Shown: positions 2,655 to 64,000, numbered from the stretch's first letter. The stretch: DNA of 64,000 nt from Bacteriovoracia bacterium (GCA_050251055.1 JBFWNL010000001.1:697210-761209), one strand, 5' to 3'. Translations and numbers: made by a program. The notes: generated from the sequence alone by a model not told the origin.

Positions 2655-3668
2655 ATGTCCAACACTAAACGCGCATTAATTACCGGAATTACTGGGCAAG
2701 ATGGCTCATACCTGACTGAACTACTCTTAGAAAAGGGGTACGAAGTTCACGGTCTCATCCGCCGCTCGAGCTCTTTTAATACGGGTCGTATCGACCACCT
2801 TTACCAAGATCCCCACATCCACGGTACCCGGCTCTTCCTCCATTACGGCGACCTTTCCGATTCCACCGGATTGAACCGCGTACTCCGGAAAATCAAACCG
2901 AACGAGATCTACAATCTCGGCGCCCAAAGCCATGTGAAAGTCAGCTTCGACGTTCCGGAATACACCGCCGACATCACTGGTACCGGTACGATCCGCCTGC
3001 TCGACGCGATCCTCGATACCGGCATCGACACCAAGTTCTACCAAGCCTCTAGCTCCGAAATGTTCGGCAAAGTGATGGAAGTCCCCCAGAAGGAAACCAC
3101 GCCCTTTTATCCGCGCAGTCCATACGGTTGTGCGAAGGTTTACTCTTATTGGATCACGGTGAACTACCGGGAAGCCTACAATATCCACGCTTCGAATGGG
3201 ATTCTGTTCAACCACGAGTCCCCGCGCCGCGGACAAACCTTCGTCACCCGTAAGATCACGCGCGCCTTGGGCGAGATTCTCGCGGGACGCCAAAAGGACC
3301 TCTACCTCGGCAATCTCGATGCCAAGCGCGACTGGGGTCACGCCAAGGACTACGTCGAAGCCATGTGGCTCATGCTCCAGGCTCCGCAGGGTGACGACTA
3401 CGTGGTCGCCACCGGCGAAACGCATTCCGTCCGCGAATTCCTGGAGCTTGCCTTCGGATTCGTAGGGCTGGATTGGAACAAGCACGTGAAAATCGATCCG
3501 AAGTATTTCCGCCCGACCGAAGTGGATCTCCTCATCGGAGACGCGACGAAAGCCAAGCAGAAGCTCGGCTGGAAACCGAAGATCTCCTTCCCCGAACTCG
3601 TGAAAGTGATGGTCGCCGAGGACGTTCGTAAAGCCGGGCTGGATCCACTCAAATACATGGTAAAATAG
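2655..3668 (+). CDS. gmd: GDP-mannose 4,6-dehydratase
   Basis: [62 protein letters not shown] (YxxxK) and NHESPRRG are classic Gmd signatures. Length 337 aa. Confidence 0.95.
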
Positions 3669-27376: not shown

Positions 27377-28062
27377 CACCAGGCCGTCCATCCGCCGTCG
27401 ACGGGATACACACCGCCGGTGCAGTAAGAGGAGTCTTCCGCGACGAGAAACCGAACCAGGCCGGTGATTTCGTCGGCTTCCGCCATGCGGCCCATGGGCG
27501 TGCGCTCCGAATAAGCGCGCATGAACTTGTCATCCTGCTGATGCCGGATCCCGCCCGGCACGACGCAGTTCACGCGGATCTTCGGCGCCCAGTGCGTGGA
27601 GAGGTGCCGCGTGAGCTGCACGACCGAGGCCTTGGAAATTCCGTAGCCCAGATGCTTCTCGCCATCGTCATAGAGCGTGGGAATCGGCGAAGTCACGCCG
27701 TAAACCGAGGAAAAATTCACGATCGACCCTTGCTTATTCACCCGGGCGAACTCGCGACAGACCGAAAAGAGCGTGATCACGTTCGTCTCGAAATACTCGC
27801 GCAAGCTATCCAGCGTGATGTCCATCAGGCGCGTAGCCGGGCGCTGTCCGCCCGCCGCCACGTGATCGACCATCGCAAACAAGTTCACGAGCCCATCGGC
27901 CGGGTTCGCCGCGAACCACTCGCGGACGAACTTCGGATCGCGCAGGTCGTGCCCGAGAGCGAGGTCGAGTGCCAACACTTCGAACTCCGTCGCCAGCTTC
28001 GGGGTCAGGGCGCGGCCCACGATCCCGCGGGAACCGGCGATGATGACGCGTTTTCTCTTCAT
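27376..28062 (-). CDS. short-chain dehydrogenase/reductase (classical SDR)
   Basis: VIIAGSRGIVGRAL, NFSSVYG, YGISKASVVQL (YxxxK), VNCVVPGGI. 228 aa. Confidence 0.8.
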   Translation of the reverse strand: MKRKRVIIAGSRGIVGRALTPKLATEFEVLALDLALGHDLRDPKFVREWFAANPADGLVNLFAMVDHVAAGGQRPATRLMDITLDSLREYFETNVITLFSVCREFARVNKQGSIVNFSSVYGVTSPIPTLYDDGEKHLGYGISKASVVQLTRHLSTHWAPKIRVNCVVPGGIRHQQDDKFMRAYSERTPMGRMAEADEITGLVRFLVAEDSSYCTGGVYPVDGGWTAW

Positions 28063-38089: not shown

Positions 38090-39316
38090 GTGAAGCTCTT
38101 GCGCCTTTCCGCCTCCTATCCTCGCTATTTGGCTAATTTCTACGCCAAGCACGCCGGCCTAGCGGACGCCCCTTATGACACACAAAGTCTTGAACTCGCG
38201 AAAGACGCGTTCGGCTGGGCAGACTTTTGGACGAACAGCCTGCCCAAGCACGGGTACGAAGTTTTGGAAATCGTGGCCAACGCCCAGTTCGCACAAAGGG
38301 CCTGGGCACGCGAATACGTGCCTCGGTTAGCGGACGCATCGACGCTTACCATAGCGACTGAACAGGTAAAACAGGTTCGACCCGACATACTTTGGATCTG
38401 CGACGTCGAGTTTTTCGGTACCGATTGGGTGCGCGAGATCCGCGCGGCCTGTCCATCCATTCAACTCGCCATCGCCTGGATGGGAACGCCCGCATACGAG
38501 GGAATTGCCGGGCTCGATGCGTTCGATGGGATTCTCTCGTGCGTGCCCGAGATCGTGACCGACCTCCGGAAGCGGGGACACCGCTCCGATCATCTTCACC
38601 ATGCTTTCGACGCCCGTATCTACGACCGCACCCACGCGAACGCGGAAGGCAGCCTGCCGCTCACGTTCGTCGGCCAAGTCCATCGTGAAAAGGGCTTTCA
38701 CCTGCGGCGCGAAGAACTCCTGCTCAAACTCGTGAATCAAGTCCCGCTGCAGCTCTATAGTCCGTCTTCCCAAGTGAACCTGAAAGACATTGCCAAGGCC
38801 TACGTGAAGCAAGCCGCCTACGCCAGCGCCCAAGCACTGCAAAGCCTCGGCGTCTCCAAAGATCGCGTCGCCCTCCTGCCAGGCTTGAAGAACATCGCGC
38901 ACCGGTCGTCCAAGCCTCTCGTCCCCGTAGACCTTCGTCTGTTGAGATTCCTGCGCCCGGGTGTATTCGGGCTCGAGATGTTCCAGATTTTGCGGAACTC
39001 GCTCGTCTCGTTGAACGTGCACATCGACGCTTCGCCGCGCTCCGCTTCCAATATGCGGCTTTTCGAAGCCACCGGCATGGGCTCGTGCCTACTGACAGAG
39101 TGGCGAGAAAACCTAGGTGAGCTATTCACGTTAGATACGGAAGTCGTGACTTACCGTTCGCCCGAAGAATGCCGCGAAAAAGCGCGCTGGCTCATAGACC
39201 ATCCGCAGGATGCGACTCGCATCGGCGAAGCCGGGCGTAAGCGCACGCTCACCGCGCACCAGTTCCAGCATCGCGCCCCGCGTCTGGATCAAATTCTGAA
39301 ACAATGGCTCCCTTAG
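38090..39316 (+). CDS. GT-B glycosyltransferase (CgeB/DUF3880 + Glyco_trans_1_2-like)
   Basis: GTG start. C-terminal NMRLFEATGMGSCLLTEW...VVTYRSPEECREKARWLIDHPQDATRIGEAGRKR is typical of Glyco_trans_1_2 domains. Confidence 0.65.
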   Translation: MKLLRLSASYPRYLANFYAKHAGLADAPYDTQSLELAKDAFGWADFWTNSLPKHGYEVLEIVANAQFAQRAWAREYVPRLADASTLTIATEQVKQVRPDILWICDVEFFGTDWVREIRAACPSIQLAIAWMGTPAYEGIAGLDAFDGILSCVPEIVTDLRKRGHRSDHLHHAFDARIYDRTHANAEGSLPLTFVGQVHREKGFHLRREELLLKLVNQVPLQLYSPSSQVNLKDIAKAYVKQAAYASAQALQSLGVSKDRVALLPGLKNIAHRSSKPLVPVDLRLLRFLRPGVFGLEMFQILRNSLVSLNVHIDASPRSASNMRLFEATGMGSCLLTEWRENLGELFTLDTEVVTYRSPEECREKARWLIDHPQDATRIGEAGRKRTLTAHQFQHRAPRLDQILKQWLP

Positions 39317-40959
39317 GCACCTTTCTACTCATGACGATCGTCACCGCAGGATTCGCCTTCTCCTTTTGGGGCTGGGGAGCCGGGGCCGCACGCGGGTTGA
39401 AGCTCCCTTCGTATGTGGAGGGCCTGCTCGGGATTTTTGTCGTCGGATTTATCACCTTGTTTTTGAATTTTTTTATCCCGATCTCGCCCTTCATCTCGTC
39501 AGCAATCACCGCCGTGGGGGCGGGCTCTGGAATCTTGGTGCTGAAAAAGTCCGGTCCAAAGGCGCGCTCTGGATACGGGACGGAGTTCGCGTACGTTGGA
39601 TTTTTCTTGCTCGTTTTCTTGGCTTGGTCGCAGGCTTCAGCCGTCGTGTACGACACCGGGCTCTACCATTTGCCGATCTTGAAGTGGAAGCAGGACTTCG
39701 CGACCCCGCTCGGCGTCGTACATCTGCATAGCCGGCTTGCCACCAACTCGGTCTGGTTCGCGGCCGCGGCTTCCACCTTGCTTCCCGACCTGGGTGTGGA
39801 TCCGGCGTTCTGCCTCAACATCCTCTTCGCCGCGTTCACCGCGCGCCTTCTGTTGCTCGCGTCCCCGAACGACGGGACCATTATCAGCTTTTGGCTAGGT
39901 GGACTAATGCTCCTCTGTCTCGTCCTCTTCAATGGCCCGCTCGCTTTCGTAGGCTCCGTCTCCAACGACTTACCCACGAATTTACTTCCGTTGATCTGCG
40001 TCTTTTTAGCTGTGCGCAGCTGGGAACAACGGCGCTATGATCCCGCACTTCCGCTCTTTGCGGTTTTAAGCACCACGATCAAGGCCTCCGGAGCCTTGAA
40101 CGTTTTGATTTGCCTCCCCCCACTCGTTTTGCTCGGCATGAATGCGGTGAAAGCCACCCTCGCTTCCCAAATCTGGCGAACCCTCGCGTTCCTGGGCGGC
40201 TGCTTGATCCTGTGGTGCACATACGGAATCCTCACTTCGGGCTGCCTCGTCTATCCGTTCTCGGGCACTTGTCTCTACGCCCTACCCTGGAGCGCCACGC
40301 CCGCCGACGTCGCCGGCGAAATGGGGGCGATCAAAGCCTGGGCCCGCTCGCCGTTTGGTCACCCCGACGTCGTGCTAAAAGACTGGGCTTGGCTGCCCGC
40401 TTGGTGGGCGAGCTTCAATGATCTTCCTTTGATTCGAGCTACAGCTATCTTGGGGGTAGTAGGCGCCTTGGGCATACTGGCGAAGAGCCTGCTTCGTAAG
40501 GCGCCCTTCCCGCGATTGATTTTGGGATTGGGTGTGGCGCTCGTGGTGCCGCTCGCCGCCTGGTTCATCTCGGCGCCCGACCCACGCTTTGCCTTTGGGT
40601 ATTTCCTAGCGCTCGGCTGCTTGCCGGCCGCCTGGGTTTTCGCGAAAACCGCGGGCAAGCGGCTCGCCTACTATGCTCCGCTCGGGATCCTCGCGATCTG
40701 TGCCCTGACCGGCCTCACCAAGTTGAATCGCGCATGGCCGACCCAACTCAAAAGCGCGACTTTGCCCCTAGCCGCCCACGACGGCACTCAGGGCAAAGTC
40801 TCCCTCATGAAAGCCGGGGGAATCGAGCTCAAACAACCTGTAGGAACCGATCAATGCTGGATGCAAACGCCCCCGTGCACGCCCTACGTACGCAAGGGGT
40901 GGACCGGGGTGATGCACGGGTATCACATGATTTTCACCCGCGTCGAACCCGCGATCTGA
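39304..40959 (+). CDS. uncharacterised ~550-aa polytopic membrane protein, paralogue of 7075..8718
   Basis: 551-aa ORF. VYDTGLYHL, GCLVYPFSGTCLYALPWS, EMGAIKAWARSP, WAWLPAWW and C-terminal QCWMQTPPCTPY are all shared with the ORF at 7075..8718. 13-nt overlap with the upstream gene. Confidence 0.7.
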   Translation: MAPLGTFLLMTIVTAGFAFSFWGWGAGAARGLKLPSYVEGLLGIFVVGFITLFLNFFIPISPFISSAITAVGAGSGILVLKKSGPKARSGYGTEFAYVGFFLLVFLAWSQASAVVYDTGLYHLPILKWKQDFATPLGVVHLHSRLATNSVWFAAAASTLLPDLGVDPAFCLNILFAAFTARLLLLASPNDGTIISFWLGGLMLLCLVLFNGPLAFVGSVSNDLPTNLLPLICVFLAVRSWEQRRYDPALPLFAVLSTTIKASGALNVLICLPPLVLLGMNAVKATLASQIWRTLAFLGGCLILWCTYGILTSGCLVYPFSGTCLYALPWSATPADVAGEMGAIKAWARSPFGHPDVVLKDWAWLPAWWASFNDLPLIRATAILGVVGALGILAKSLLRKAPFPRLILGLGVALVVPLAAWFISAPDPRFAFGYFLALGCLPAAWVFAKTAGKRLAYYAPLGILAICALTGLTKLNRAWPTQLKSATLPLAAHDGTQGKVSLMKAGGIELKQPVGTDQCWMQTPPCTPYVRKGWTGVMHGYHMIFTRVEPAI

Positions 40960-44370: not shown

Positions 44371-45903
44371 CTAAAGGTCAGGCTTCAACCGGACTTCGAG
44401 CCCGCAATGGCGCACCGGAACCATACCGTTCGTCGGCGGCTGGTCGGAGATCGCGAATTCTCCGTTTAACTGCGTAATGTATTGGACTTTGCCAGGTTCC
44501 GCCGCTGGCCACCCACAACGTTTCAATTCGCGGCCGAGATCGACCACGATGTTCATCGGCTGCTCCCAACCGTATTCGCGACCGGTGAAGACGTACGGAC
44601 GCAGCTCCCCGCTCCAAGGCAGGCACGCCTTCCCGGCCGGGCTGGCCGTCGCTTCATACTTCATCACGAATTCTCCGGCGTACTCGTGCGTCCGATGCAA
44701 GATGCGGCCGCAGTACGCGAGGAGACCAACGATCGCCAAAGCCTGCGCCCCGCGCAGGAGCAGCGGATGGGAAACGCGTGCGCGGACCAGTTCGACCACT
44801 CCGTACAGGCCGAGGAGCACGAAGAACGCGCGCACGAAGACGAGATAAAGGAACATGCGCTGGATGAAATGGTATTTATACAGAATCACCGCCACGGCAG
44901 TGGCGGCAAAAACTCCGATAAAGAACCAAGAAAGCGCGCCCAAGGCGAAGAGCTGGCGTTCCCTAGCGTTCCAGCTCGAACGCCGGCGAAAAAGCACGCA
45001 CACATACGCCATGCCCGCCACCAAGAGGAGGTTGAAAGGCATTGCAAACAATCCGTCTTGCCAGAGCAGGCTGCGCACGGAGTGGATTTGATCCCAGTTC
45101 AGCGGGCCGGCCGCCGAACCGGCGCAGAAACCCGCGTGGCGCGAATAAAAGAGGCCGATGGCGGCAAAAATGGCGCCAGAGATTCCGAAGTATCGGAAGG
45201 CTTTGCGTCCGCCGGAGCCATCCATCACGAGTGAAAGCATTCCGAGTACGAAACAGCACACTCCTACCTGCATCCAGCCGGGGTTGGACGTGAAAGTCAG
45301 CAGAAAGCTTGCACCCGCAAACCAGAGCTTATCTCCACGAGTGATCTCGCCCCAGGACTTCCGGCTAAGACGCACCGTCAGCGCAACTACGAGCATGAAG
45401 AACCCCATCCACAGGGAGTAAGGACGGGTCTCGGTCGTGTAAAAGTGAAAGATCATTCGCTGCCCTACCAGCGCGAGCGCGAATAGCCCGTAAGACCAGC
45501 CTAGCAAAGTTGCGCCGACATAGACCACAGAGGCCATTGCCACGAAGCCCGCCGCGAGCGGTTCTATGCGGTAAGTGAGCAGAATCGAGTCGTCGAAGTC
45601 GCGGGTGCCATGCGAGACCGCGCGCTGGATGATGTGATGGAGCGGCGGAACGTTGCACGCGTTGGGGGCGCCACGGACAAAAAATTTGGAATACGGGTAC
45701 GCGCAGGTATCGTAAATTTCGAAACCCTCGTCCTGCCAAAAGGGCTTGTGCTGCGCGATTCGGGCTTCCTGATAGCTGAGTACGGTCAACATGATCAGAG
45801 TGAGGACGCAGAAGACTGCCGATCGTCGGGACAACCTGAGCTTCGAAATCATAGATATCCGATCTTTACTAGAAAAACTCAGGCGTGGGTACTGGTTGCT
45901 CAA
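44371..45903 (-). CDS. GT-C-fold (ArnT/PMT_2-like) membrane glycosyltransferase
   Basis: 510-aa polytopic ORF. The first loop carries FWQDEGFEIYD (acidic DE motif) and NVPPLHH (compare HPPL). Convergent with the GtrB-like/MTase pair. Confidence 0.6.
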   Translation of the reverse strand: MSNQYPRLSFSSKDRISMISKLRLSRRSAVFCVLTLIMLTVLSYQEARIAQHKPFWQDEGFEIYDTCAYPYSKFFVRGAPNACNVPPLHHIIQRAVSHGTRDFDDSILLTYRIEPLAAGFVAMASVVYVGATLLGWSYGLFALALVGQRMIFHFYTTETRPYSLWMGFFMLVVALTVRLSRKSWGEITRGDKLWFAGASFLLTFTSNPGWMQVGVCCFVLGMLSLVMDGSGGRKAFRYFGISGAIFAAIGLFYSRHAGFCAGSAAGPLNWDQIHSVRSLLWQDGLFAMPFNLLLVAGMAYVCVLFRRRSSWNARERQLFALGALSWFFIGVFAATAVAVILYKYHFIQRMFLYLVFVRAFFVLLGLYGVVELVRARVSHPLLLRGAQALAIVGLLAYCGRILHRTHEYAGEFVMKYEATASPAGKACLPWSGELRPYVFTGREYGWEQPMNIVVDLGRELKRCGWPAAEPGKVQYITQLNGEFAISDQPPTNGMVPVRHCGLEVRLKPDL

Positions 45904-46085: not shown

Positions 46086-49000
46086 CTAGCTTAACGGAGT
46101 AACCCTAAAATCGATTTGCGGTCTAGGGTGCCGATGAAGTGCCCGTAAGAAAGCCGTTGCCTTTTCAATATCGGTAATCAACGCGCAACCGAATTGAACC
46201 GCCGTCCGGCGCACCAGAACGTCCCGGCGGATTTCCGAAGGATCGAAGTTCTTCGGCACATTGATAACCAGATCTACTTGCTTCTTCTGGATGATCTGCC
46301 CGGCGTCGATTTCCCCCGGGCGGCCCTCCCCTGGCCAGGGAACGCTCATCACCTCATAACCTTCACCCTTAAGATGCCGGGCGGTGCCCGGGGTAGCGTA
46401 GATTTTGACGTCCAGTTTCCTGAGAATCTCCATCACCGACAGGAACTTCCGCTTCTCCTCCGCCGTACCCGAGCTCACCAGCACTCCTACTTTGGGCCTC
46501 CGGATGCCGGTCGCCTGCAATGCCAATAAGAGCGCTTCATCCAAATCAGCGCCTACGCAACCCACCTCGCCAGTAGAAGTCATTTCGACGCCCAGAACGG
46601 GATCGGCTCCGGCTAAACGATTGAAGCTGAACATCGCAGCCTTCACCCCAATCCGTTCGGACTTCGTGGGCGGCACGGCTGGGGACCTTCCGATCAGGAC
46701 ATCGGTCGCGTACTGCGCTAACGGAATTTGCGTCACCTTGGAAACGAACGGAAAGGACCGCGAAGCGCGGGCATTGCATTCAATGACCAAAAGTTCGCCG
46801 GCTTTGTGCATGAACTGGATATTAAACGGCCCGTTCAGCCGAAGCTGCGCGCAAATACGCTCGCCCGCGTCTAAAATCCGCACACGCGTCGCTGGGTCTA
46901 TCTTCTGCGGAGGCAGAACCAGGGTCGCGTCGCCCGAGTGAATACCTGCGTTCTCGATATGTTCACTGACCACGGCGGCGATCATGCGTCCGCTCTGTGC
47001 GACGCCATCTAACTCGAGCTCGATGGCGTCGGTAATGAATTCGGACACCACCACGGGATGCTCGGCGGAAACATCCGCAGCAAGCGAAAGCGCCCGCTCC
47101 AACGACGGCCAGTCGTAGACCACGTTCATCGCGGCGCCGGAAAGCACGAAGCTCGGACGCACGATGACGGGGAAACCGGCCTTATCGATAAATGGCTTGA
47201 TGTCGTTCAGCTGGGCCGCCGAGATCCAACGAGGCTGACGAACTTCGGCCTTATCCAGGATATCGGAAAAGATCTGACGGTCCTCCGCCCGGCGAATGGT
47301 CTCAGAGTCGTGACCCAGTATGCGAATCCCCGCAGCCGTCAACGAAGCAGCCAGGCGGTTCGGCAGCTGGCCGCCCATGGAAACCACCACTCCAGTCGGG
47401 GTTTCCAGATCAGCGACATCCAGCACGCGCTCGAAGCTCACCTCGTCGAAGTAGAGGCGGTCAGAGCTGTTGTGGTCCGTCGAGACGGTTTCCGGGTTAC
47501 AATTGAGAACCACACTGCGCCAGCCCTCCGCGCGAAGTCTCTGTGAGCACTCCACCGCACACCAGTCGAACTCCACGCTGGTGCCGATACGATAGGTACC
47601 GCTGCCGAGTACCAACGCGGTCTCAGACTTGCCGTCGGACGCCACCAGGTCATTGAATTGTCCCCCGTACGTCAGATAAAGGTAGTTCGACGTCGAAGGA
47701 TACTCGGCCGCGGTGGTATCGATTTTCTTCACGACCGGCGCGACACCCAAAGCTTTGCGGCGCCGGCGCAAAATCAAGGATGCCTCCCGGATCTCGGTTT
47801 CGGTTGGCATGTCCGGGCCGGTGCGGAGATAAATCCCGGCTATCTGCTCGTCGCTGAAACCCGCAGATTTCCAGCAGCGCCATTGGTCGGGTGTGACCCC
47901 GACGAAATCCAGAGCGAGGTCACCCGTCACCCGCAATGCTTGGAGATCCCGTTCGATCGCCACGATTTTTTCCAGCGAAGCCAGGAACCATTTGTCGATT
48001 CGAGTGAGCTCGAATATCTCTTCGCGCGGATACCCGGCCCTGAAGGCTTGCATCAGCTCCAGCAGACGATTGTCCGTCGCGATCTTCAGGCTCGCGAAAA
48101 GCTCTCCGCGCTCCTTAAATTTCTGCGGCAAACTGAGGCCTTCGGGGCGCTCGGTGACCATGCGAAAGGCTTTCTGCAAGGTCTCCGGAAACGACCGACC
48201 GATGGCCATGACTTCGCCGACGGATTTCATCGCGGAACCGATCGTGCGGTCGGCGCCCCTAAACTTCACTAGGTCCCACCGGGGGATCTTGACGGCAATG
48301 TAATCCAGCGCGGGCTCGTAGAATGCCTTAGTCACGCCCGTGACCGGATTGGTCAACTCGAGTAAGGTATGGCCCAACACGACTTTTGCCGCGATCGCGG
48401 CGATGGGATAGCCGGTCGCCTTGCTCGCGAGCGCGCTCGAACGGGACAGCCGTGCGTTCACTTCGATGACGAAAAATTCCGACGAATCGGGGCTGAGCGC
48501 GTATTGAACGTTGCACTCACCCAGGATCTCGAGGTGCTCGGCGATACGGAAGGCCGCGTTCCGCAGGCGTTGATACTCCTCATCGTCGAGGGTCTGACTT
48601 GGGGCCACGACGATGGAGTCGCCGGTGTGGATCCCCATCGGGTCGAAGTTCTCCATGTTGCAGATCGCGATCGTGTTACCGGCTGTGTCGCGCATGATCT
48701 CGTATTCGATTTCCTTCCACCCACGCAGCGATTTCTCGATCAAGACCTGGGGCGAGGACGCGAGCGCGCTCTCCACGAGGCGGCGAAGCTGCGTTTCGTC
48801 TTCCGCAAACCCGCTGCCTAACCCACCCAAGGCGAAGGCCGCTCGGCAAATCACCGGAAACCCGATGGCGCGTCCGGCGTCCAGTGCCTGATCGACCTCG
48901 GTGACGACCGCGCTGGGTGGCACCGGGATCTCGATCTCGCGCATGGCTTTCGCGAAGAGATCCCGGTCCTCCGTGATGCGTAGGGACCCGAGATCCGTGC

Positions 49001-49367
49001 CCAGATTGCGCAAGTTATAGCGAGAAAACATCCCTTGTTCTTCCATCTTAATGGCGCAATTAAGGGCCGTCTGGCCGCCAAAACCGGCGACGACAGCGTC
49101 CGGTTTCTCGGCCTGGATCACCTTCTCGACCCATTCCGGTTCAACGGGGTAAAGATAGACTTTGGTATGAGGGCGCTGGTTCGTCTGCACCGTGGCGATA
49201 TTCGGGTTCACGATCACCACGTCGATGCTCTCTTCGTGAAATGACTTCAGTGCTTGCGTGCCGGAGTAATCAAACTCCCCGGCTTGCCCGATGGAAAGCC
49301 CGCCGGAGCCTAAGAGCAGGACCTTAGGCCTTCGTCCGAGCTCAAGGAGCCAAGGATGCGCGGGCAT
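46086..49367 (-). CDS. carB: carbamoyl-phosphate synthase large subunit
   Basis: KVLLLGSGGLSIGQAGEFDYSGTQA. Duplicated ATP-grasp halves (second half: LVLGSGTYRIGTSVEFDWC). C-terminal MGS-like domain. The start is taken at ATG 49367 (track start 49400). Confidence 0.96.
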   Translation of the reverse strand: MPAHPWLLELGRRPKVLLLGSGGLSIGQAGEFDYSGTQALKSFHEESIDVVIVNPNIATVQTNQRPHTKVYLYPVEPEWVEKVIQAEKPDAVVAGFGGQTALNCAIKMEEQGMFSRYNLRNLGTDLGSLRITEDRDLFAKAMREIEIPVPPSAVVTEVDQALDAGRAIGFPVICRAAFALGGLGSGFAEDETQLRRLVESALASSPQVLIEKSLRGWKEIEYEIMRDTAGNTIAICNMENFDPMGIHTGDSIVVAPSQTLDDEEYQRLRNAAFRIAEHLEILGECNVQYALSPDSSEFFVIEVNARLSRSSALASKATGYPIAAIAAKVVLGHTLLELTNPVTGVTKAFYEPALDYIAVKIPRWDLVKFRGADRTIGSAMKSVGEVMAIGRSFPETLQKAFRMVTERPEGLSLPQKFKERGELFASLKIATDNRLLELMQAFRAGYPREEIFELTRIDKWFLASLEKIVAIERDLQALRVTGDLALDFVGVTPDQWRCWKSAGFSDEQIAGIYLRTGPDMPTETEIREASLILRRRRKALGVAPVVKKIDTTAAEYPSTSNYLYLTYGGQFNDLVASDGKSETALVLGSGTYRIGTSVEFDWCAVECSQRLRAEGWRSVVLNCNPETVSTDHNSSDRLYFDEVSFERVLDVADLETPTGVVVSMGGQLPNRLAASLTAAGIRILGHDSETIRRAEDRQIFSDILDKAEVRQPRWISAAQLNDIKPFIDKAGFPVIVRPSFVLSGAAMNVVYDWPSLERALSLAADVSAEHPVVVSEFITDAIELELDGVAQSGRMIAAVVSEHIENAGIHSGDATLVLPPQKIDPATRVRILDAGERICAQLRLNGPFNIQFMHKAGELLVIECNARASRSFPFVSKVTQIPLAQYATDVLIGRSPAVPPTKSERIGVKAAMFSFNRLAGADPVLGVEMTSTGEVGCVGADLDEALLLALQATGIRRPKVGVLVSSGTAEEKRKFLSVMEILRKLDVKIYATPGTARHLKGEGYEVMSVPWPGEGRPGEIDAGQIIQKKQVDLVINVPKNFDPSEIRRDVLVRRTAVQFGCALITDIEKATAFLRALHRHPRPQIDFRVTPLS

Positions 49368-50475
49368 GCGTCCTCGCTTCTTCAACAAAATCCCGGACAA
49401 TCCACTCCGTGTCGCGAGGGCCGCCGGCCGCCTCCGGATGGAACTGCACCGACCGGAACGGCTTGGTGCGATGCTTAATGCCTTCGATGGTCCCGTCGTT
49501 TACGTTCTCAAACCAGGTTTCCCATTCGGAGGTCGCAGAAGTGTGCTCGATAACAAAGCCATGATTCTGGCTGGTCATGAACCCACGGTCCGTGCCGGTA
49601 AGCCGCACGGGCTGGTTGTGGCTGCGATGCCCATAAGGCATACGAACCGCACGTCCGCCGGACGCGAGCGCCATGATTTGATGGCCTAGGCAAATCCCGA
49701 GTACGGGACGTGTCCCGCTCAGCAAAACCCGAACCCGAGCGACGAGATCGCCCGTTTTCACCGGATCCCCGGGCCCGTTGCTCAGTATCCAAGCATCGCA
49801 GTCGACCGTACTGAAGTCGGTGTCCCACGGTAGCAGCTCGATTTCGCAGTCGGCCTGGCTCAAGAGCTGGCGGACGATGTTCCACTTCACGCCACAGTCT
49901 ATTACCGCGAGCTTCAAGTTCCCGCTGCCTAAACGTACGCGATCTTTTCGCGACACGGAAGGGAGCAGATTGGTGCCCGTCGGATTGTAAAAACCGTCGC
50001 GGGAATAAAAAGCCGTCGCTTCGGTAGCGCCTTCCGGCTCGATCCGCGCCAACACGGTCCCTTGGCCGCGGATGATATGAACAAGCTGGCGCGTATCTAC
50101 GCCCACAATCCCGGGACAATTCTGGGACCGGAGCCATTCGTCCAGCGACTCCAAGCTGCGCCAATGAAAGGCGTCCGTGCAGTCGCCATGCACGACGACC
50201 GCGGACGCGTGGATGCGCTCGCTCTCGAATGCCCGTGATCCGGTTAAGCCGGTATTTTCGGGGACCCCGTAGTTACCGATCATCGGATAGGCAAATACGA
50301 GTACCTGGCCGTAATAAGAAGGGTCGGTGAGGGTTTCCGCATAACCCACCATGCCGGTCGTAAAAACAAGCTCCCCGCTGGAACGCAAAGGCGCACCGAT
50401 ACTCCAGCCCTCAAAGGAGTCCCCCGTGGCCAAAGTCAGTCGGCAGGGGCTACGTTTTAGCGAATCTCGTTGCAT
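49342..50475 (-). CDS. carA: carbamoyl-phosphate synthase small (glutaminase) subunit
   Basis: LTLATGDSFEGWSIGA...GELVFTTGMVGYAETLTDPSY.GQ...GICLGHQ (catalytic Cys)...HGF...QFHPEA. Confidence 0.95.
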   Translation of the reverse strand: MQRDSLKRSPCRLTLATGDSFEGWSIGAPLRSSGELVFTTGMVGYAETLTDPSYYGQVLVFAYPMIGNYGVPENTGLTGSRAFESERIHASAVVVHGDCTDAFHWRSLESLDEWLRSQNCPGIVGVDTRQLVHIIRGQGTVLARIEPEGATEATAFYSRDGFYNPTGTNLLPSVSRKDRVRLGSGNLKLAVIDCGVKWNIVRQLLSQADCEIELLPWDTDFSTVDCDAWILSNGPGDPVKTGDLVARVRVLLSGTRPVLGICLGHQIMALASGGRAVRMPYGHRSHNQPVRLTGTDRGFMTSQNHGFVIEHTSATSEWETWFENVNDGTIEGIKHRTKPFRSVQFHPEAAGGPRDTEWIVRDFVEEARTHARASLAP

Positions 50476-50815: not shown

Positions 50816-52651
50816 ATGAAAATTATCGGAATCTCTGCCTTTTATCACGATAGTGCAGCGGCCCTGATCAAGGACGGCGAGATCATCGCGGCCGCCCAGG
50901 AAGAGCGCTTCACGCGCAAGAAACACGACGCGGGTTTCCCAAGCCACGCCCTCGAGTATTGCCTTGCCGAAGGCAAGCTACGACTGGAAGAAATCGACTA
51001 CGTGGCTTTCTACGACAAACCGCTCCTCAAGTTCGGCCGCCTCTTTCAGACGTACTTGGCCTTCGCGCCTCGCGGTTACGTTTCGTTCCGCAAAGCCATG
51101 CCGCTCTGGATGGGCGAGAAGGTCTTTCAGAAGAAGATGATCCAGGACGAGTTCGCGCGCCGGGCGCCTAAGCTGGACGTCGAAAAGAAACTCCTGTTTT
51201 CCGAGCATCACCTCAGCCACGCCGCGAGCGCCTATTACCCGTCTCCCTTCGACGACGCAATCATCCTAACGATGGACGGCGTGGGGGAATGGGCCACGAC
51301 CTCGTTAGGCCGCGGCACCGGAAATAAGATCGAGATCTCCAAGGAGATCCATTTCCCACATTCACTGGGCCTGCTCTATTCGGCGTTCACTTATTACACC
51401 GGCTTCAAAGTGAACTCTGGCGAGTACAAAGTCATGGGGCTCGCGCCTTACGGCGAGCCTAAGTACGCTCAGAAGATCTTCGATCACCTGATGGATCTGA
51501 AGTCGGACGGCTCGTTCCGGTTGAACCAGGAGTATTTCGACTATTGCACCGGCCTACGCATGACGAACGAAAAGTTCGAACAACTCTTCGGCTTGCCCAC
51601 CCGTAAGTCGGAAGACCGGCTGAACCAGGAACACATGGATCTAGCGGCCTCCGTTCAACACGTGACGGAAGAAGTGGTCTTGCGCCTCACCCGCACGGCG
51701 GCCAAGGAAACCGGCGTCGCGAACCTGTGCTTGGCCGGCGGCGTGGCGCTGAACTGCGTGGCCAACGGAAAAGTCCTGCGCGACGGAAAGTTCAAAAATG
51801 TTTGGATTCAACCCGCGGCCGGTGACGCCGGCGGAGCGCTGGGTGCCGCGCTCGCCGCCCATCACCTGTACTTGAAACAGCCCCGCAAGAGCGATGGCCC
51901 CCTGGACCGGATGCGCGGATCTTACCTCGGACCGGAGTTCGCTCAAGCCGATATCGAACGGCGACTCAAAGAAGTGGGCGCGAAGTTCAAGGTCCTGAAT
52001 GAATCGGAAATCATCGAAGCCTCGGCCCAGGCTTTGGCGGATGAAAAAGCCATCGGTTGGTTCCAAGGACGCATGGAGTTCGGCCCGCGCGCGCTGGGCG
52101 GACGCTCGATCATCGCGGATGCCCGCTCGCCGAAGATGCAATCGGTCTTGAACCTGAAAGTGAAATACCGCGAGTCGTTCCGCCCGTTCGCGCCGTCCGT
52201 CTTGCGCGAAGACGTGGCCGATTGGTTCGAGATGGATTGCGACAGCCCGTACATGCTGCTCGTCGCCGACGTGAAAAAAGCGCGCCGCCGGGCCATGACG
52301 GAGGCGGAGCAGAAGCTCTTCGGCATAGCCAAGCTCAACGTGCCCCGCTCCGATGTTCCGGCCGTGACCCACGTGGACTATTCGGCGCGCGTGCAGACGG
52401 TGCACAAACAGACGAATGGCCGTTACCACGCCCTGATTTCATCGTTTAAAAAGAAAACGGGCTGCCCGGTGATCGTGAACACGAGCTTCAACGTTCGCGG
52501 CGAACCCATCGTTTGCACCCCGGAGGACGCCTTCCGCTGCTTCATGGGCAGCGAAATCGATACCCTCGTGGTGGGCAACTGCTTCCTTTCGAAAGAAGAC
52601 CAAGACCCCGCATTGAAGTTGAACTACAAGGACGCCTTCGAGCTCGATTAG
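50816..52651 (+). CDS. NodU/CmcH/TobZ-family carbamoyltransferase
   Basis: MKIIGISAFYHDSAAALIKDGEIIAAAQEERFTRKKHDAGFP...LTMDGVGEW...CLAGGVALNCVANG...NTSFNVRGEPIV. 611 aa. Confidence 0.92.
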   Translation: MKIIGISAFYHDSAAALIKDGEIIAAAQEERFTRKKHDAGFPSHALEYCLAEGKLRLEEIDYVAFYDKPLLKFGRLFQTYLAFAPRGYVSFRKAMPLWMGEKVFQKKMIQDEFARRAPKLDVEKKLLFSEHHLSHAASAYYPSPFDDAIILTMDGVGEWATTSLGRGTGNKIEISKEIHFPHSLGLLYSAFTYYTGFKVNSGEYKVMGLAPYGEPKYAQKIFDHLMDLKSDGSFRLNQEYFDYCTGLRMTNEKFEQLFGLPTRKSEDRLNQEHMDLAASVQHVTEEVVLRLTRTAAKETGVANLCLAGGVALNCVANGKVLRDGKFKNVWIQPAAGDAGGALGAALAAHHLYLKQPRKSDGPLDRMRGSYLGPEFAQADIERRLKEVGAKFKVLNESEIIEASAQALADEKAIGWFQGRMEFGPRALGGRSIIADARSPKMQSVLNLKVKYRESFRPFAPSVLREDVADWFEMDCDSPYMLLVADVKKARRRAMTEAEQKLFGIAKLNVPRSDVPAVTHVDYSARVQTVHKQTNGRYHALISSFKKKTGCPVIVNTSFNVRGEPIVCTPEDAFRCFMGSEIDTLVVGNCFLSKEDQDPALKLNYKDAFELD

Positions 52652-58796: not shown

Positions 58797-59747
58797 ATGA
58801 CGACATCGCTGCATAAGGATGCCCCTGTCTTCGTGGCCGGACATCGAGGCCTGGTCGGATCTGCCGTAGTCCGTCGCCTGCAAGCGGCCGGCTATTCAAA
58901 TCTCTTACTTAGATCCCGCGCCGAACTCGACCTTTTAGACCAGGCGGCGGTGCATGCGTTCTTCAAAGAACAGCGCCCCACCTACGTCGTGCTCGCAGCC
59001 GCAAAAGTGGGCGGCATCCACGCGAACAATACTTTTCCCGCCGACTTCCTCTACGAAAATCTCGTCACGGCCGGTAACGTAATCCACGCCGCCGCCGAAG
59101 CGGGCACCGAGAAACTCCTTTTCTTGGGTAGCTCCTGCATCTACCCGAAGCTCGCGACGCAGCCTCTGCGCGAAGACAGCTTGCTCACCGGCCCGCTGGA
59201 GCCAACCAACGAAGGCTACGCGCTTGCCAAAATCGTGGGTCTCAAGCTCTGCCAGATGTACCAGCGGCAATACAAAAAGCGTTTTATCTCTTGCATGCCG
59301 ACGAATCTGTACGGACCAAACGACAACTTCCACCCGGATCACTCGCACGTCATTCCGGGGATGCTCCGCCGCTTCCACGAAGCGAAGATCCAGAAGCGTC
59401 CGGAAGTCGTGATCTGGGGAACGGGTACGCCGAAGCGTGAATTCCTCTACGTCGACGACTTGGCCGAAGCGATCCAGCTCCTGCTCGAAACCTACGAAGG
59501 CACGGATACGATCAACGTCGGCACCGGCGAAGACGGCACCATTCGCGAGCTCGCTGAAACCGTCGCGCGCGTCGTGGGTTACGAAGGCAAGATCGTGACC
59601 GACCCGTCGAAGCCCGACGGGACGCCCCGCAAAGTGCTCGATGTTTCTAGAATCAATGGACTGGGCTGGAAAGCGCGCCACGATCTCGCGACCGGCCTAC
59701 GGCTCACTTACGAATGGGCACTCTCCCAAGGCATGTTTCAAACATAA
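58797..59747 (+). CDS. fcl: GDP-L-fucose synthase (GDP-4-keto-6-deoxymannose 3,5-epimerase/4-reductase)
   Basis: [18 protein letters not shown]...[24 protein letters not shown]...[16 protein letters not shown]...LEPTNE.YA.AKI.G.KLC..Y.RQY...[18 protein letters not shown]...PDGTPRK.LDVSR is near-identical in pattern to WcaG/Fcl. Confidence 0.93.
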
Positions 59748-61250: not shown

Positions 61251-61997
61251 TCAGGCCATCGAAGAAACAGAGGTGTGCTTGCGCTTGTCTTTCTTATTTG
61301 CCTTGCCCTTGCGCACCTCACCCCAGTAAAGCTTCAGAAACGCGATGCCGGTTTGCAGGCTTGGCGAGCCTTCGCGGTTATCGATGCGCGAAGCTTCATA
61401 CGTAGGGAACTCCACAATCTTGAGGCCTAACTTGAAAGCCCGAATAGAGCTTTGATACTCGATCGTGTACCCTGGGCCATCGAGCTCAAGCTGCGCCCAG
61501 GCTTTCTTTGTAATGGCGCGGAAGCCATTAATCGTGTCGGTAACATACCCCCCGCGCAGCGTAGGGCCCAGGTTCCAGGTCACGTTCGCCATGAGCGTGA
61601 AGGCGTTGTTCGCCCACTTACGCAGCGGAAAAAGCAGCTCGTCTTCCTCGTTATGCGCGCCCTTCACCATGCGGGTGCCGATCACGATATCGCCGCCACC
61701 TTCCAGATGCGGACGGAACTTCGGGATGTCGGCGGCGTCTTCGTTGCCGTCGGGGCTGTAGAAAATCAAGGCGTCGCCGGTGGCGCGGCGGAACGCCTCG
61801 CGAAAGGCTTCGCCGCGGCCGCGCACGGTCTGTGGATAAACGGTGACGCCATTTTCACGTAAGAATTCGATCGTACCGTCGGTGCTGCCCCCATCGATGG
61901 CAAAAACCTCATCCACCGCGTTACGCGGAATCTTCGCGAAAACCTCGCGCAGGCCGACGATTTCATTCAAAGTCAAGATAACGAGGGAAATTTTCAT
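61251..61997 (-). CDS. glycosyltransferase family 2 (soluble, DPM1-like)
   Basis: MKISLVILTLNEIVGL...VFAIDGGSTDGT...LIFYSPDGNEDAADIP...VIGTRM. Paralogous to the C-terminal domain of the upstream fusion gene. ATGA overlap. Confidence 0.82.
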   Translation of the reverse strand: MKISLVILTLNEIVGLREVFAKIPRNAVDEVFAIDGGSTDGTIEFLRENGVTVYPQTVRGRGEAFREAFRRATGDALIFYSPDGNEDAADIPKFRPHLEGGGDIVIGTRMVKGAHNEEDELLFPLRKWANNAFTLMANVTWNLGPTLRGGYVTDTINGFRAITKKAWAQLELDGPGYTIEYQSSIRAFKLGLKIVEFPTYEASRIDNREGSPSLQTGIAFLKLYWGEVRKGKANKKDKRKHTSVSSMA

Positions 61998-63925
61998 TTA
62001 TGGGGTCCCGTCGCGCCGGGGAGCTGTTTATTACCACCGGTCGGCAAGGCGCGGTTACGGCCGCCGGAGTGCTGAAATAGAATACGCGCGAAAGAAAGCG
62101 CGCTGAGTACGCGGTTGCGACGACGGCGTGCCTGGATGGCTTTGCGCTCGAGCGTGGGGCATTCACTGAACTGATTGCCGTTCTGCAACGCCTTCACCGT
62201 CATCTCGAACATGGCGTTCTCGCCGCCCTCATGGAGATTAAGCTTCGAAATCGCCGTCTTCTTGAACCCCCGGAAGAGATTGTTGCAGTCGCTGACATTG
62301 GCGTTGAAAAGCACGCTCAGCAGGAACGAGAAAAAACGATTCCCCACCGAACGATAGAGCGCGTTTTTCTCGGACTCACGCGCGCCGCCCGGCATGAAAC
62401 GGCTGGCGATCACGAGCGCATGACCTTGCTTCAAGCGAATAAGCAAACGCGGAATATCCTCGGGACTGTCGGCGCCGTCGCCACCAAACACGACGACATT
62501 CTCGCACTCGGTCGTCGCGACCGCACGGCGCAAGAGCTCGCCCTTGCCTTCGCTGCGGCCCGGAGTACCGCGTACGACGCGAAAACCGCGTTTAGCAAAA
62601 GCCGTACAGGCTTCCTCATCGGCGCGGTCGTTGCCGCCTTCGACGAAAACCAAATCCTGGAAGCTCGCCACCGGCAACGCGTCCAGCATCATCTGCGCCG
62701 CGCGGCCATCACCCTTGGACATAACAATCAAGGCCGCCTTCTCCTGCGCCACCGATTCCTGGGCGAAGTAAGAGTGAAACACGTCTACGATGTATTCCCG
62801 CTCGATCTCGGTGATGTTCTGATGGCAGCCGAAGTAAAAACCGCTCTCGTTCACCCACTTGGCGACCGGGAAATCTTCCTCACGCACGCCGAGCAGCTCC
62901 TTATAAAAAGGCTGGTTGATCAGCGGGAGCATGTCGCGCGTTTCAATTCCATGCGACTCGAGGTAACTCACCAAGCCGCGCTTCTGATCCTTCCGCACCA
63001 CTATCGGGAACATCATGAATGCATGGCCCGCGCCCTCGCGTAGAGCCGGCAGCTGGATGTGCTTTTCGAGCGGCCTGAGCTTCTGCAAGAAATACTGGGC
63101 ATTATCCCAGCGTTTGCGCATCATCTGCTCGTGATCTTCGAATTCAGCCAGCCCCAACGCGCCTTCCATTTCGGTGACGCGATAGCTGTAGCCCATCTGC
63201 ACAAAAGAGAAGCGGCGCTGGATGATGAGCTCCATCTCTTCTTTCGATTTGTTCTTGTCGTCGTCGATGCTGATGTAAATCGAATCGCGGCCGTGATTCA
63301 TTAAAGAGCGCAGCTGCACGGCCAAGTCCGGATCGTTCGTGGTGCAAAGCCCGCCCACCCCCGTCGTCAGAATATGCGCAACGTAAGTGGAGAAGCAACC
63401 GACGTCGCTCATTGCTCCGACCGACTTGCCGTTGAGCTTCGTAAACATCGTCTCGCACGAATCTTCGATCATGCGCAGGTTATGCTTCTTGGCGATGGCG
63501 CCGATGCGCTCCATATCGCAGGGATGCCCGAAGAGGTGAACGGGAATAATGCAACGGGTGCGCGGCGTGATCGCGGCTTCGATCAAGTCGGGATTCAATT
63601 CGTAGTAGACGGGATCCACATCTACGAAGACAGGCTTCATCCCATTTTGCAACACGACATTGGAGGTCGCGATGAAGGTGACGGCCGGGACGATAACCTC
63701 GTCGCCGTCCTTCCAGCCGTAGCGATTCTTCAGAGCGGCGAGCGCGATCTGCAGGCTGCTCGTGCCGCTGTTCGTCATAACCGCAAATCGGCAGTCATGC
63801 GCTGCCGCAAAAAGGCGTTCAAATTTCTGGGTGAAATAACCGTAAGAGAGGCGCTCGGAGTTGAGGACCTCATTCACGTATTTACGTGATTTTTCAGTGA
63901 TTTTGAAGGTTCCGACGCCAATCAT
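61994..63925 (-). CDS. DegT-fold PLP/PMP enzyme with His replacing the Schiff-base Lys (ColD/E1-type sugar 3-dehydratase-like) fused to a GT2-like domain
   Basis: ORF track 61994..63967; likely start is ATG 63925 (MIGVGTFKI). N-terminal ~400 aa: AVMTNSGTSSLQIAL, IEDSCETM, and CFSTYVAHILTTGVGG with His (codon 63374-63376) where the other two DegT proteins in this window have Lys. C-terminal ~250 aa: VVFGGDGADSPEDIP...VIASRF...NLFRGF, a GT2 fold similar to 61251..61997. Confidence 0.75.
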   Translation of the reverse strand: MIGVGTFKITEKSRKYVNEVLNSERLSYGYFTQKFERLFAAAHDCRFAVMTNSGTSSLQIALAALKNRYGWKDGDEVIVPAVTFIATSNVVLQNGMKPVFVDVDPVYYELNPDLIEAAITPRTRCIIPVHLFGHPCDMERIGAIAKKHNLRMIEDSCETMFTKLNGKSVGAMSDVGCFSTYVAHILTTGVGGLCTTNDPDLAVQLRSLMNHGRDSIYISIDDDKNKSKEEMELIIQRRFSFVQMGYSYRVTEMEGALGLAEFEDHEQMMRKRWDNAQYFLQKLRPLEKHIQLPALREGAGHAFMMFPIVVRKDQKRGLVSYLESHGIETRDMLPLINQPFYKELLGVREEDFPVAKWVNESGFYFGCHQNITEIEREYIVDVFHSYFAQESVAQEKAALIVMSKGDGRAAQMMLDALPVASFQDLVFVEGGNDRADEEACTAFAKRGFRVVRGTPGRSEGKGELLRRAVATTECENVVVFGGDGADSPEDIPRLLIRLKQGHALVIASRFMPGGARESEKNALYRSVGNRFFSFLLSVLFNANVSDCNNLFRGFKKTAISKLNLHEGGENAMFEMTVKALQNGNQFSECPTLERKAIQARRRRNRVLSALSFARILFQHSGGRNRALPTGGNKQLPGATGPHK

Positions 63926-64000
63926 AGGGGCCCCACAGCTATACCCCCAACGGGAGGCCTTCGACAAGGCTATTCCGAGACACCCGTAGACCTGTCCCTT

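Follow-up and report, generated by a model that had tools for sequence, protein, structure and literature searches.

What is an enzyme of the DegT family, with a histidine in place of the lysine that would form the Schiff base with the cofactor, doing in the same polypeptide as a glycosyltransferase-like domain? The question is raised by a gene on the minus strand at positions 61994..63925 of a 64,000-nucleotide stretch of DNA from a Bacteriovoracia bacterium (GCA_050251055.1 JBFWNL010000001.1:697210-761209), the whole of which is called the window here. Identified from its open reading frame (ORF), from Pfam and NCBIfam matches and from its homologues, the gene encodes a protein of 643 residues in which an N-terminal His-type DegT domain is fused to a C-terminal domain resembling the glycosyltransferases of family 2 (GT2), and the next gene encodes a small stand-alone GT2. 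We consider it slightly better than an even chance that the protein is a 3-dehydratase of a new clade that is tethered by a pseudo-glycosyltransferase to a lipid-phosphate sugar transferase.

The fusion gene and its distribution

The minus-strand ORF is open for 657 codons from a TTG (61994..63967). This TTG was dismissed as the start, as the homologues, all of which begin MIGVGTF, and the 643-residue gene call on an independent assembly of the same DNA (locus L084) start at the ATG at 63925 (MIGVG). The same ATG had been chosen in an earlier interpretation made from the DNA alone, called here the sequence-only reading. Pfam assigned residues 9-382 of the 643-residue protein to DegT_DnrJ_EryC1 (E 2e-93) and residues 425-561 to Glycos_transf_2, the latter a borderline match of 23.6 bits against a gathering cut-off of 23.3. 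By use of Pfam, phmmer searches of the PDB, Foldseek and BLASTP the first domain was delimited to residues 1-391 (62753..63925, minus strand), a domain of the DegT/aspartate aminotransferase (AAT) fold and a putative pyridoxamine phosphate (PMP)-dependent nucleoside diphosphate (NDP)-4-keto-6-deoxyhexose 3-dehydratase of the ColD type. The second comprises residues 395-643 (61994..62743, minus strand), and by BLASTP, profile searches, residue conservation and AlphaFold (AF2) it is a GT-A/GT2-like domain that appears to be a degenerate paralogue of the small GT2. In the AlphaFold model of the fusion (29 homologues; mean predicted local distance difference test score, pLDDT, 83; predicted template modeling score, pTM, 0.61) both domains are well folded and are joined by a short and structured linker of ~5 residues. 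The C-terminal domain has a beta/alpha GT-A-like fold at a pLDDT of about 80-93, and residues 213-220 are among the segments of low confidence.

The single polypeptide could be an artefact, either an assembly chimera or a frameshift joining two genes. The window's own database entry is a truncated 439-residue fragment (P0003), and a few homologous loci look split (e.g., L038), both of which would fit that explanation. However, full-length homologues of 600-670 residues came back from a protein search as 113 independent clusters, which span many samples and phyla and match 92-100% of the query at 46-69% identity. Moreover, 38 genomic loci carry the fusion as a single ORF, the independent assembly L084 has an identical 643-residue gene, and the frame is continuous through the short structured linker. 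The artefact explanation, already refuted by these comparative data, is vanishingly improbable; the fusion of the putative dehydratase to a GT2-like domain in one polypeptide, as first read from the sequence, is real.

The fused clusters, all of them metagenome-derived, came from Planctomycetota, Oligoflexia/Bdellovibrionota, Deltaproteobacteria, Acidobacteria, Chloroflexota and other groups. When GTDB species were scanned for the motif, one genome each, relatives turned up in 326 genomes, and all of the loci retrieved from that scan (80/80) were in metagenome-assembled genomes (MAGs). The total of 83 loci comprised the 38 fused loci plus 45 in which the DegT protein stands alone (~390-440 residues, 55-63% identical), the latter number including a few truncated by contig ends. 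Stand-alone forms are found in Woesearchaeota, Nanoarchaeota, Methanosarcinales, bacteria of the Candidate Phyla Radiation (CPR), Gemmataceae and Gammaproteobacteria. A literature search found nothing relevant on a DegT-GT2 fusion or on lipid-linked colitose, although this is weak evidence of absence, most subscription journals being outside its coverage. The fusion to a degenerate GT2, within a conserved cassette containing a small GT2 of the 'SPDGNE' type, is without a characterized member and is widespread in uncultured bacteria.

Histidine 184 and the dehydratase assignment

Residue 184 of the fusion is encoded by CAT (63374..63376, minus strand), read directly at 63376-63374 in the peptide context CFSTYVAHILTTGVGG / GCFSTYVAHILTTGVGG, and alignments put this histidine at the position of the Schiff-base lysine. 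In phmmer searches of the PDB the fusion segment STYVAHILTTGVGG paired with SFFGNKIITTGEGG of GDP-perosamine synthase, in which the lysine is Lys186 (K186A in the deposited mutant), and the His184 region paired with SFYPAHHITMGEGG of E1, the histidine of which is His220. BLASTP against E. coli O111 ColD placed His184 on ColD His188; the reference ColD and ColC sequences were those of the colitose O-antigen cluster of E. coli O111:H8. These three alignments bear out the lysine-to-histidine replacement proposed in the sequence-only reading. The histidine is invariant, being found in 114/114 full-length proteins and at 83/83 genomic loci. A lysine from a neighboring position standing in for His184, which the earlier interpretation had named as the result that would undo it, was dismissed because no clade member examined has a lysine at positions 172-196, that is, within 12 residues of His184. 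The other two DegT ORFs of the window do carry the lysine, as had been read (18003-19100, FSFYPTKNLGAYGDGG; 28059-29279, FSFENTKHLSCGEGG), and the two blocks named as ColD-like align with ColD, EDSCETM with EDNCESM and GFYFGCHQ with GFFVGNHQ.

The exchange of lysine for histidine is the accepted hallmark of E1, ColD and SpnQ (PMC8987622; 10.1101/2021.09.04.459008), and we drew the roles of catalytic residues from the same review and preprint and from direct alignments. The cofactor residues are invariant in the clade: these are the S53-G54-T55 loop, D155, E158 and S179, the ColD equivalents being S55-G56 (of S53-G54), D159, E162 and S183. The fusion resembles E1 (DdhC/AscC/RfbH; PDB 3BCX), the CDP-6-deoxy-L-threo-D-glycero-4-hexulose 3-dehydrase, in residues Tyr181 and Ala183 (E1 Tyr217 and Ala219) as well as in the histidine, and the clade shares with both E1 and ColD an insertion of ~20 residues after the GRD loop that GDP-perosamine synthase lacks. 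Unlike E1, however, the alignment gives S215, Y217 and N225 at the positions of the [2Fe-2S] cluster cysteines C251, C253 and C261, with only C157 (E1 C193) being kept. As three of the four cluster cysteines are missing, the protein should lack an iron-sulfur cluster and, if a dehydratase, would be of the ColD type. Hence, an E1-type iron-sulfur mechanism was dismissed. The neighborhood further differs from that of E1 in having no conserved E3-type reductase and in its context of GDP-sugar rather than CDP-sugar genes. The place of the E1 iron-sulfur loop is filled by a clade-specific motif, NHGRDSIYxSIDDD(K) (residues 210-226, ~63248-63298). Within its acidic run D221 and D222 are invariant and D223 is at least 90% conserved, and the AlphaFold confidence there is low.

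ColD (WbdK of E. coli O55/O111; PDB 2GMS, 3B8X) is the GDP-4-keto-6-deoxy-D-mannose 3-dehydratase of the colitose pathway. It resembles the fusion in its DegT/AAT fold, its histidine and cofactor residues, its lack of the iron-sulfur cysteines, its EDxCExM and GFxxGxHQ blocks and its insertion after the G(R/W) loop, and its operon partners, Gmd and an Fcl-like reductase, are those of the stand-alone orthologues. In ColD the enamine is hydrolyzed and PMP is then regenerated with glutamate (PMC8987622). The fusion is nevertheless not a ColD orthologue. The two proteins are 30% identical over 370 residues (BLASTP E 3e-52), ColD has Ser187 where the fusion has alanine, the NHGRDSIYxSIDDD motif belongs to the fusion clade, and ColD has neither the attached GT2-like domain nor the associated small GT2 of the fusion. 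Indeed, GDP-perosamine synthase (Per/RfbE; PDB 3BN1, 3DR4) ranks above ColD by both sequence and fold, and so does E1. The phmmer E-values of the DegT domain were 2.9e-54 for GDP-perosamine synthase, 4e-50 for E1 and 4.8e-42 for ColD, with pairwise identities of 32%, 29% and 30%, respectively (the clade is thus roughly equidistant from the three), and Foldseek gave TM-scores of 0.82-0.90 to the three enzymes, those to 3dr4 and 3bn1 being 0.90. GDP-perosamine synthase has the same presumed substrate, GDP-4-keto-6-deoxymannose, but differs in being an aminotransferase having a catalytic Lys186 and no insertion. NCBIfam RfbH was also among the best matches of the fusion, at 224 bits and under its cut-off of 423 bits.

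Given this resemblance to an aminotransferase, the His-type DegT domain might not be a 3-dehydratase but might instead transaminate without an internal aldimine, catalyze epimerization or isomerization at C3/C4, or bind sugar nucleotides without catalysis. In addition to the marginally closer sequence and fold of GDP-perosamine synthase, such a reading could draw on the replacement of ColD Ser187 by alanine and of E1 Phe345 by methionine, on the transamination that SpnQ performs under some conditions (PMC8987622), and on the finding that other 'dehydratase-determining' sites are not strictly conserved among dehydratases (10.1101/2021.09.04.459008). Yet the cofactor residues are invariant, the insertion common to E1 and ColD is present, and the operon partners of the stand-alone forms (Gmd plus an Fcl/ColC-like protein, no acyl- or formyl-transferase being required) match the colitose pathway. 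Moreover, as far as we know, all characterized sugar-nucleotide DegT enzymes that have histidine at this position are 3-dehydratases. We regard a non-dehydratase as very improbable. The N-terminal domain is probably a PMP-dependent sugar 3-dehydratase, an enzyme of a known kind belonging to a separate and previously uncharacterized clade. The earlier proposal that such an enzyme feeds a GDP-3,6-dideoxyhexose branch gains support from the invariant histidine, the intact cofactor residues, the missing E1 cysteines and the operons containing gmd and Fcl-like genes.

The C-terminal domain and the small GT2

The gene that follows the fusion (61251..61997, minus strand) encodes a stand-alone GT2 of 248 residues, the probable catalytic partner, which was recognized by Pfam (GT2, E 3e-14), by NCBIfam, where its best matches were the AglJ and Dol-P-hexose transferase models, and by the motifs VDGGSTDG, SPDGNED and ExPTxE. 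Its ATG overlaps the stop codon of the fusion as ATGA, which suggests that the two genes are translationally coupled. In the 36 sequences of the family VDGGSxDG, S81-P-D83-G-N85-E86-D87..D90 and the C-terminal ExPTxE are invariant, as are the individual residues D35, S38, D40, D83, N85 (asparagine replacing glutamine) and R109. When these residues are mapped on 89-DADLQH-94 of PfDPMS, D83 falls on D91, which binds the metal, N85 on Q93, a metal ligand, and E86 on H94, which contacts the sugar; SPDGNE thus stands where the polyprenyl-phosphate GT2s have DADLQ(H/D/N). The small GT2 has the nucleotide motif, the metal ligands and the R117 equivalent of this class, but lacks the DXD motif's first aspartate, an invariant S81 being found where PfDPMS has D89, and it has no transmembrane segments. 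The missing aspartate has been proposed as the general catalytic base of the class (ArnC study). From the mapping on PfDPMS the small GT2 has the look of a competent enzyme, although an atypical one.

The C-terminal domain of the fusion had also been read as GT2-like and as paralogous to the product of the next gene, and both claims were upheld. The weak Pfam call is backed by BLASTP, by profile matches to the PDB and by the AlphaFold fold. BLASTP aligned the domain with the small GT2 at 23% identity over 231 residues (E 2e-17), and a profile of the domain matched such small GT2s far above generic GT2s. In the PDB the family profile found PfDPMS (2.3e-9), GtrB (7.6e-4) and ArnC (1.8e-3). These polyprenyl-phosphate GT2s (DPM1/PfDPMS, GtrB, ArnC) are the closest solved relatives of the C-terminal domain and of the small GT2. 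They share the GT-A fold, and the metal-binding aspartate, R117 and S135 of PfDPMS have equivalents in the fusion/small GT2 family. A further likeness may lie in the association with GT-C enzymes, to which relatives are fused. The C-terminal domain and the small GT2 differ from them in having no transmembrane helices; no hydrophobic 19-mer above threshold was found in the C-terminal domain, the last part of which is a basic stretch followed by an amphipathic helix (~605-620, AF2).

The sequence-only reading had also described an altered nucleotide-binding motif, and indeed DGGSTDG is invariant in the small GT2 family and variable in the fused domain. The losses extend further: the C-terminal equivalents of S38, D40, S81, N85 and E86, all invariant in the small GT2s, are not conserved, and only the second aspartate of DADLQ (D483) is kept, the first being G, P, T, A or S (Ser in the small GT2) and the Gln93 equivalent being R, S or A. 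Hence, of the features of the polyprenyl-phosphate GT2s, neither the nucleotide motif nor the metal ligand equivalent to Gln is left in the domain. The residues retained are D483 (PfDPMS D91), R509 (R117) and S526 (S135), and in PfDPMS R117 and S135 bind the acceptor phosphate. Among the fused proteins R509, the G528-N529-R530 sequence, D546, E588 and E593 are invariant, S526, D490 and D483 are 95, 92 and 91% conserved, respectively, and 89/114 sequences have an acidic residue (D or E) at position 429.

Of the fused loci, 31/38 have an intact small GT2 within 2.5 kb, as against 5/45 of those that stand alone (Fisher p = 5.6e-11). Two of the 7 fused loci without a nearby small GT2 are at contig ends and another two have a copy that is farther away or more divergent. 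The commonest gene order, found at 16 loci, is fusion, Fcl-like short-chain dehydrogenase/reductase (SDR) and small GT2. An eroded donor side and a retained acceptor side, together with an intact paralogue nearby, constitute the signature of a pseudo-enzyme partner. The earlier interpretation had offered two roles for the second domain, of which a degenerate binding module is favored by the motifs and an ordinary active glycosyltransferase is disfavored, the motifs having been lost.

The conservation within the C-terminal domain could also be taken to mean that the protein is bifunctional, the domain being an active, non-canonical glycosyltransferase for the new deoxysugar or a related one while the small GT2 makes a second, separate transfer. 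The domain is clearly under purifying selection (D483, D490 and the invariant R509, G528, R530, D546, E588 and E593), keeps the equivalent of the metal-binding D91 and an acidic residue at position 429 in most sequences, and scores just over the Pfam GT2 cut-off, and some distant members keep a canonical VDNGSSDGT or VDDGSKDGT. This reading must contend with the loss of five residues invariant in the small GT2s, the absence of the first DADLQ aspartate, the replacement of the Gln93-equivalent metal ligand and the presence nearly always of an intact paralogue alongside, which is the usual pattern of pseudo-enzyme partners. We consider bifunctionality unlikely, although deserving of attention.

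Retention of the acceptor residues (R509 and S526) together with loss of the donor residues would also be expected if the dehydratase acted on a lipid-linked sugar. The small GT2 would then load a 4-keto-6-deoxyhexose on polyprenyl phosphate and the C-terminal domain would present it to the DegT domain for 3-deoxygenation, a scheme with which the separation of the domains by only ~5 residues and the C-terminal basic stretch and amphipathic helix are in keeping. Tailoring of sugars on the lipid is seen in the Arn and decaprenyl-phospho-arabinose pathways. However, comparison of the fused and stand-alone DegT domains gave 103 positions at least 90% conserved with the same residue and zero group-specific conserved differences, and the stand-alone forms are found in plain gmd/fcl-like operons, mostly lacking a small GT2 (5/45), which argues for a GDP-sugar substrate for both forms. 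No DegT-fold enzyme is known to us to act on a polyprenyl-phosphate sugar, and we judge this scheme to be quite improbable.

Proposed substrate, lipid carrier and pathway

The substrate of the predicted dehydratase is suggested by the stand-alone loci. A Gmd gene adjoins the stand-alone gene in 14/45 loci, and two of the adjoining Gmd proteins that were tested scored 499 and 511 bits (NCBIfam equivalog cut-off 415). An Fcl-like SDR is nearby at 10/45 stand-alone loci and, within 2.5 kb, at 23/38 fused loci. The gene orders are gmd, fcl-like, DegT(His) at L070 and gmd, DegT(His), fcl-like at L064, an arrangement like that of colB/colD/colC. The Fcl-like neighbors of stand-alone genes scored 277-389 bits on the fucose-synthase model (cut-off 500), on which authentic ColC scored 311. 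The best structural match of the DegT domain is likewise a GDP-sugar enzyme. As the stand-alone orthologues lie beside Gmd and Fcl/ColC-like genes, we infer, on good contextual evidence, that the substrate is GDP-4-keto-6-deoxymannose and the end product a colitose-like GDP-3,6-dideoxyhexose. When all neighboring ORFs were clustered, the SDR and the small GT2 were the only conserved partners to emerge.

Stand-alone His-type DegT genes in gmd/fcl-like operons were seen among loci L039-L083 (e.g., L070 7999-11173; L063 8930-11176; L064 2-2644), in MAGs of Woesearchaeota, Nanoarchaeota, Bilamarchaeaceae, Saccharibacteria, Peribacteria and Paceibacterota. Judged by gene content, these operons imply synthesis of 3,6-dideoxyhexoses in DPANN and CPR lineages.

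Candidate genes for such a pathway are present in the window, as the sequence-only reading had stated, but not close together. A GDP-mannose 4,6-dehydratase (Gmd), the likely supplier of substrate although remote, is encoded at 2655..3668 (plus strand; TIGR01472, 564 bits, cut-off 415). A 316-residue Fcl/ColC-like SDR, a candidate 5-epimerase/4-reductase, is encoded at 58797..59747 (plus strand). It scored 484 bits on the GDP-L-fucose synthase model (cut-off 500) and is 65% identical to the SDR that abuts the fusion at L001 and 39% identical to E. coli O111 ColC. Thus, the claim of gmd and an Fcl/ColC-type reductase in the locus held for the window as a whole, whereas the true gmd is 58 kb off and the Fcl-like gene is on the other strand. 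A second Gmd-like SDR (26381-27391, minus strand) reached 273 bits on the gmd equivalog (cut-off 415) and is probably a different 4,6-dehydratase. At L084, which extends beyond the end of the window, the fusion and the small GT2 make up a unit of two genes that borders the glycan cluster, and the genes upstream of them encode an unrelated secreted protein, an ankyrin-repeat protein and MgtE.

A link to a lipid carrier comes from relatives of the small GT2. GT2s of the same signature are fused to PMT_2 GT-C domains in P0133, P0160 and P0168 (760-1172 residues), P0133 bearing also an F5/8 type C domain, and GT-C genes above the Pfam thresholds adjoin the cassette at L003, L006 and L033 (PMT_2) and at L071 (YfhO). 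These fusions and adjoining genes fit loading of polyprenyl phosphate followed by use of the product by a GT-C enzyme. In one further representative, P0163 (608 residues), a GT2 having the VDGGSTDG, S(P)DGNE and ExPTxE motifs is fused to GDP-mannose 4,6-dehydratase. Fused and stand-alone loci could not be told apart by a rough tally of polytopic membrane proteins encoded within 5 kb (18/38 versus 22/45). A cassette composed of a DegT-family enzyme, an SDR and a GT2 recalls ArnB/ArnA/ArnC, although the DegT partner is an aminotransferase in the Arn system and a predicted His-type dehydratase here.

The tethered-dehydratase model that we infer, in which each act of catalysis, the identity of the substrate, the assignment of the C-terminal domain as a pseudo-enzyme and the use of a lipid as acceptor are all conjectural, would proceed as follows. 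Gmd would make GDP-4-keto-6-deoxy-D-mannose, on which the N-terminal domain would act. His184 would abstract the C4' proton of the PMP-sugar ketimine and expel the 3-OH to give GDP-4-keto-3,6-dideoxymannose, with PMP being regenerated by transamination and with no iron-sulfur cluster, as in the ColD mechanism. The Fcl/ColC-like reductase (58797-59747) would then give a GDP-3,6-dideoxy-L-hexose resembling colitose. The C-terminal domain, a presumed duplicate of the adjacent small GT2, most likely acts not as a catalyst but as a partner or scaffold, through which the dimeric dehydratase would be brought to the small GT2 at the surface of the membrane. The small GT2 would then move the deoxysugar from GDP to polyprenyl phosphate, and a GT-C enzyme would use the product outside the cytoplasm. 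DegT enzymes form obligate dimers, and a 2:2 assembly of fusion and small GT2, recalling the GtrB and ArnC tetramers, can be imagined by analogy, although this is speculative. Known colitose residues are added by cytoplasmic Leloir transferases. That the cassette makes a polyprenyl-phosphate-linked 3,6-dideoxyhexose (lipid-linked colitose) for a GT-C outside the cytoplasm, that the pseudo-glycosyltransferase couples tailoring to loading, and that the unfused clade gives the 3,6-dideoxyhexoses of DPANN and CPR lineages is, taken together, a tentative proposal that we think more likely wrong than right.

Several observations weigh against the tethered-dehydratase model. The DegT domain scores slightly better against the aminotransferase GDP-perosamine synthase than against ColD or E1, and as it is only 30% identical to ColD the histidine may have been acquired independently, in which case the chemistry need not match that of ColD. 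ColD Ser187 is Ala183 in the fusion clade, and AlphaFold models with low confidence both the His loop (182-190) and how the two domains are oriented to each other. The gmd genes of the window are 35-59 kb from the fusion, the true gmd being the one 58 kb away. The Fcl-like SDR lies 1.5 kb off on the opposite strand behind a Na+/H+ exchanger (antiporter) gene, and with its near-threshold score (484 bits of 500) could simply make GDP-fucose. Neither GT2 has a transmembrane helix and both lack the first aspartate of DADLQ, so that the small GT2 fits the polyprenyl-phosphate class incompletely. The C-terminal domain has conserved acidic residues (D483, D490 and D546), and the VDNGSSDGT of some distant members likewise leaves room for residual or altered catalysis. 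Finally, no GT-C enzyme was identified near the fusion in the window. Pfam gave no family for six large ORFs of 6-12 predicted membrane spans (7075-8718, 8742-10772, 11606-13264, 16515-17999, 39304-40959 and 44371-45903), which are candidate flippases, polymerases or GT-C enzymes, and the nearest of these is 16 kb away.

Other genes of the window and of the compared loci deserve mention. In the glycan/sulfation region a 738-residue ORF (31873-34089, minus strand) combines a pyruvate-kinase barrel, PUA_2 and ATP-sulfurylase, an unusual fusion. Elsewhere in the window a 632-residue ORF (24499-26397, minus strand) combines NeuB (sialic/nonulosonic acid synthase), SAF and a xylose-isomerase-like TIM barrel (AP_endonuc_2). 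Within the glycan cluster carA and carB (46086-50475, minus strand) adjoin a carbamoyltransferase of the NodU/CmcH type (50816-52651), which suggests a carbamoylated sugar; at L001 a carbamoyltransferase also lies about 8 kb from the cassette. In the E. coli O111:H8 sequence (L085, NZ_CP077447.1, 8983-12175) the colanic-acid gmd is truncated and is followed by IS3, IS30 and IS2 transposase genes, this insertion region being just upstream of galF and the colitose O-antigen cluster.

The 3,6-dideoxyhexoses, rare and strongly antigenic sugars, have been met chiefly in the O-antigens of a handful of Gram-negative pathogens, and to our knowledge only three 3-dehydratases (ColD, E1 and SpnQ) have been studied so far. 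The present comparisons define a separate clade of His-type DegT enzymes, which occur in DPANN archaea and CPR bacteria as well as in many bacterial phyla. One large sub-branch of this clade comprises enzymes that carry a degenerate glycosyltransferase in the same chain and are associated with an uncharacterized family of small GT2s. If the model is true, this would be the first route by which a dideoxysugar is loaded onto a lipid-phosphate carrier, a type of donor not described so far, and would provide an example of a pseudo-glycosyltransferase serving as a scaffold. The label 'DegT/DnrJ/EryC1/StrS family aminotransferase', now applied across the board to these proteins, would then need correcting as well.

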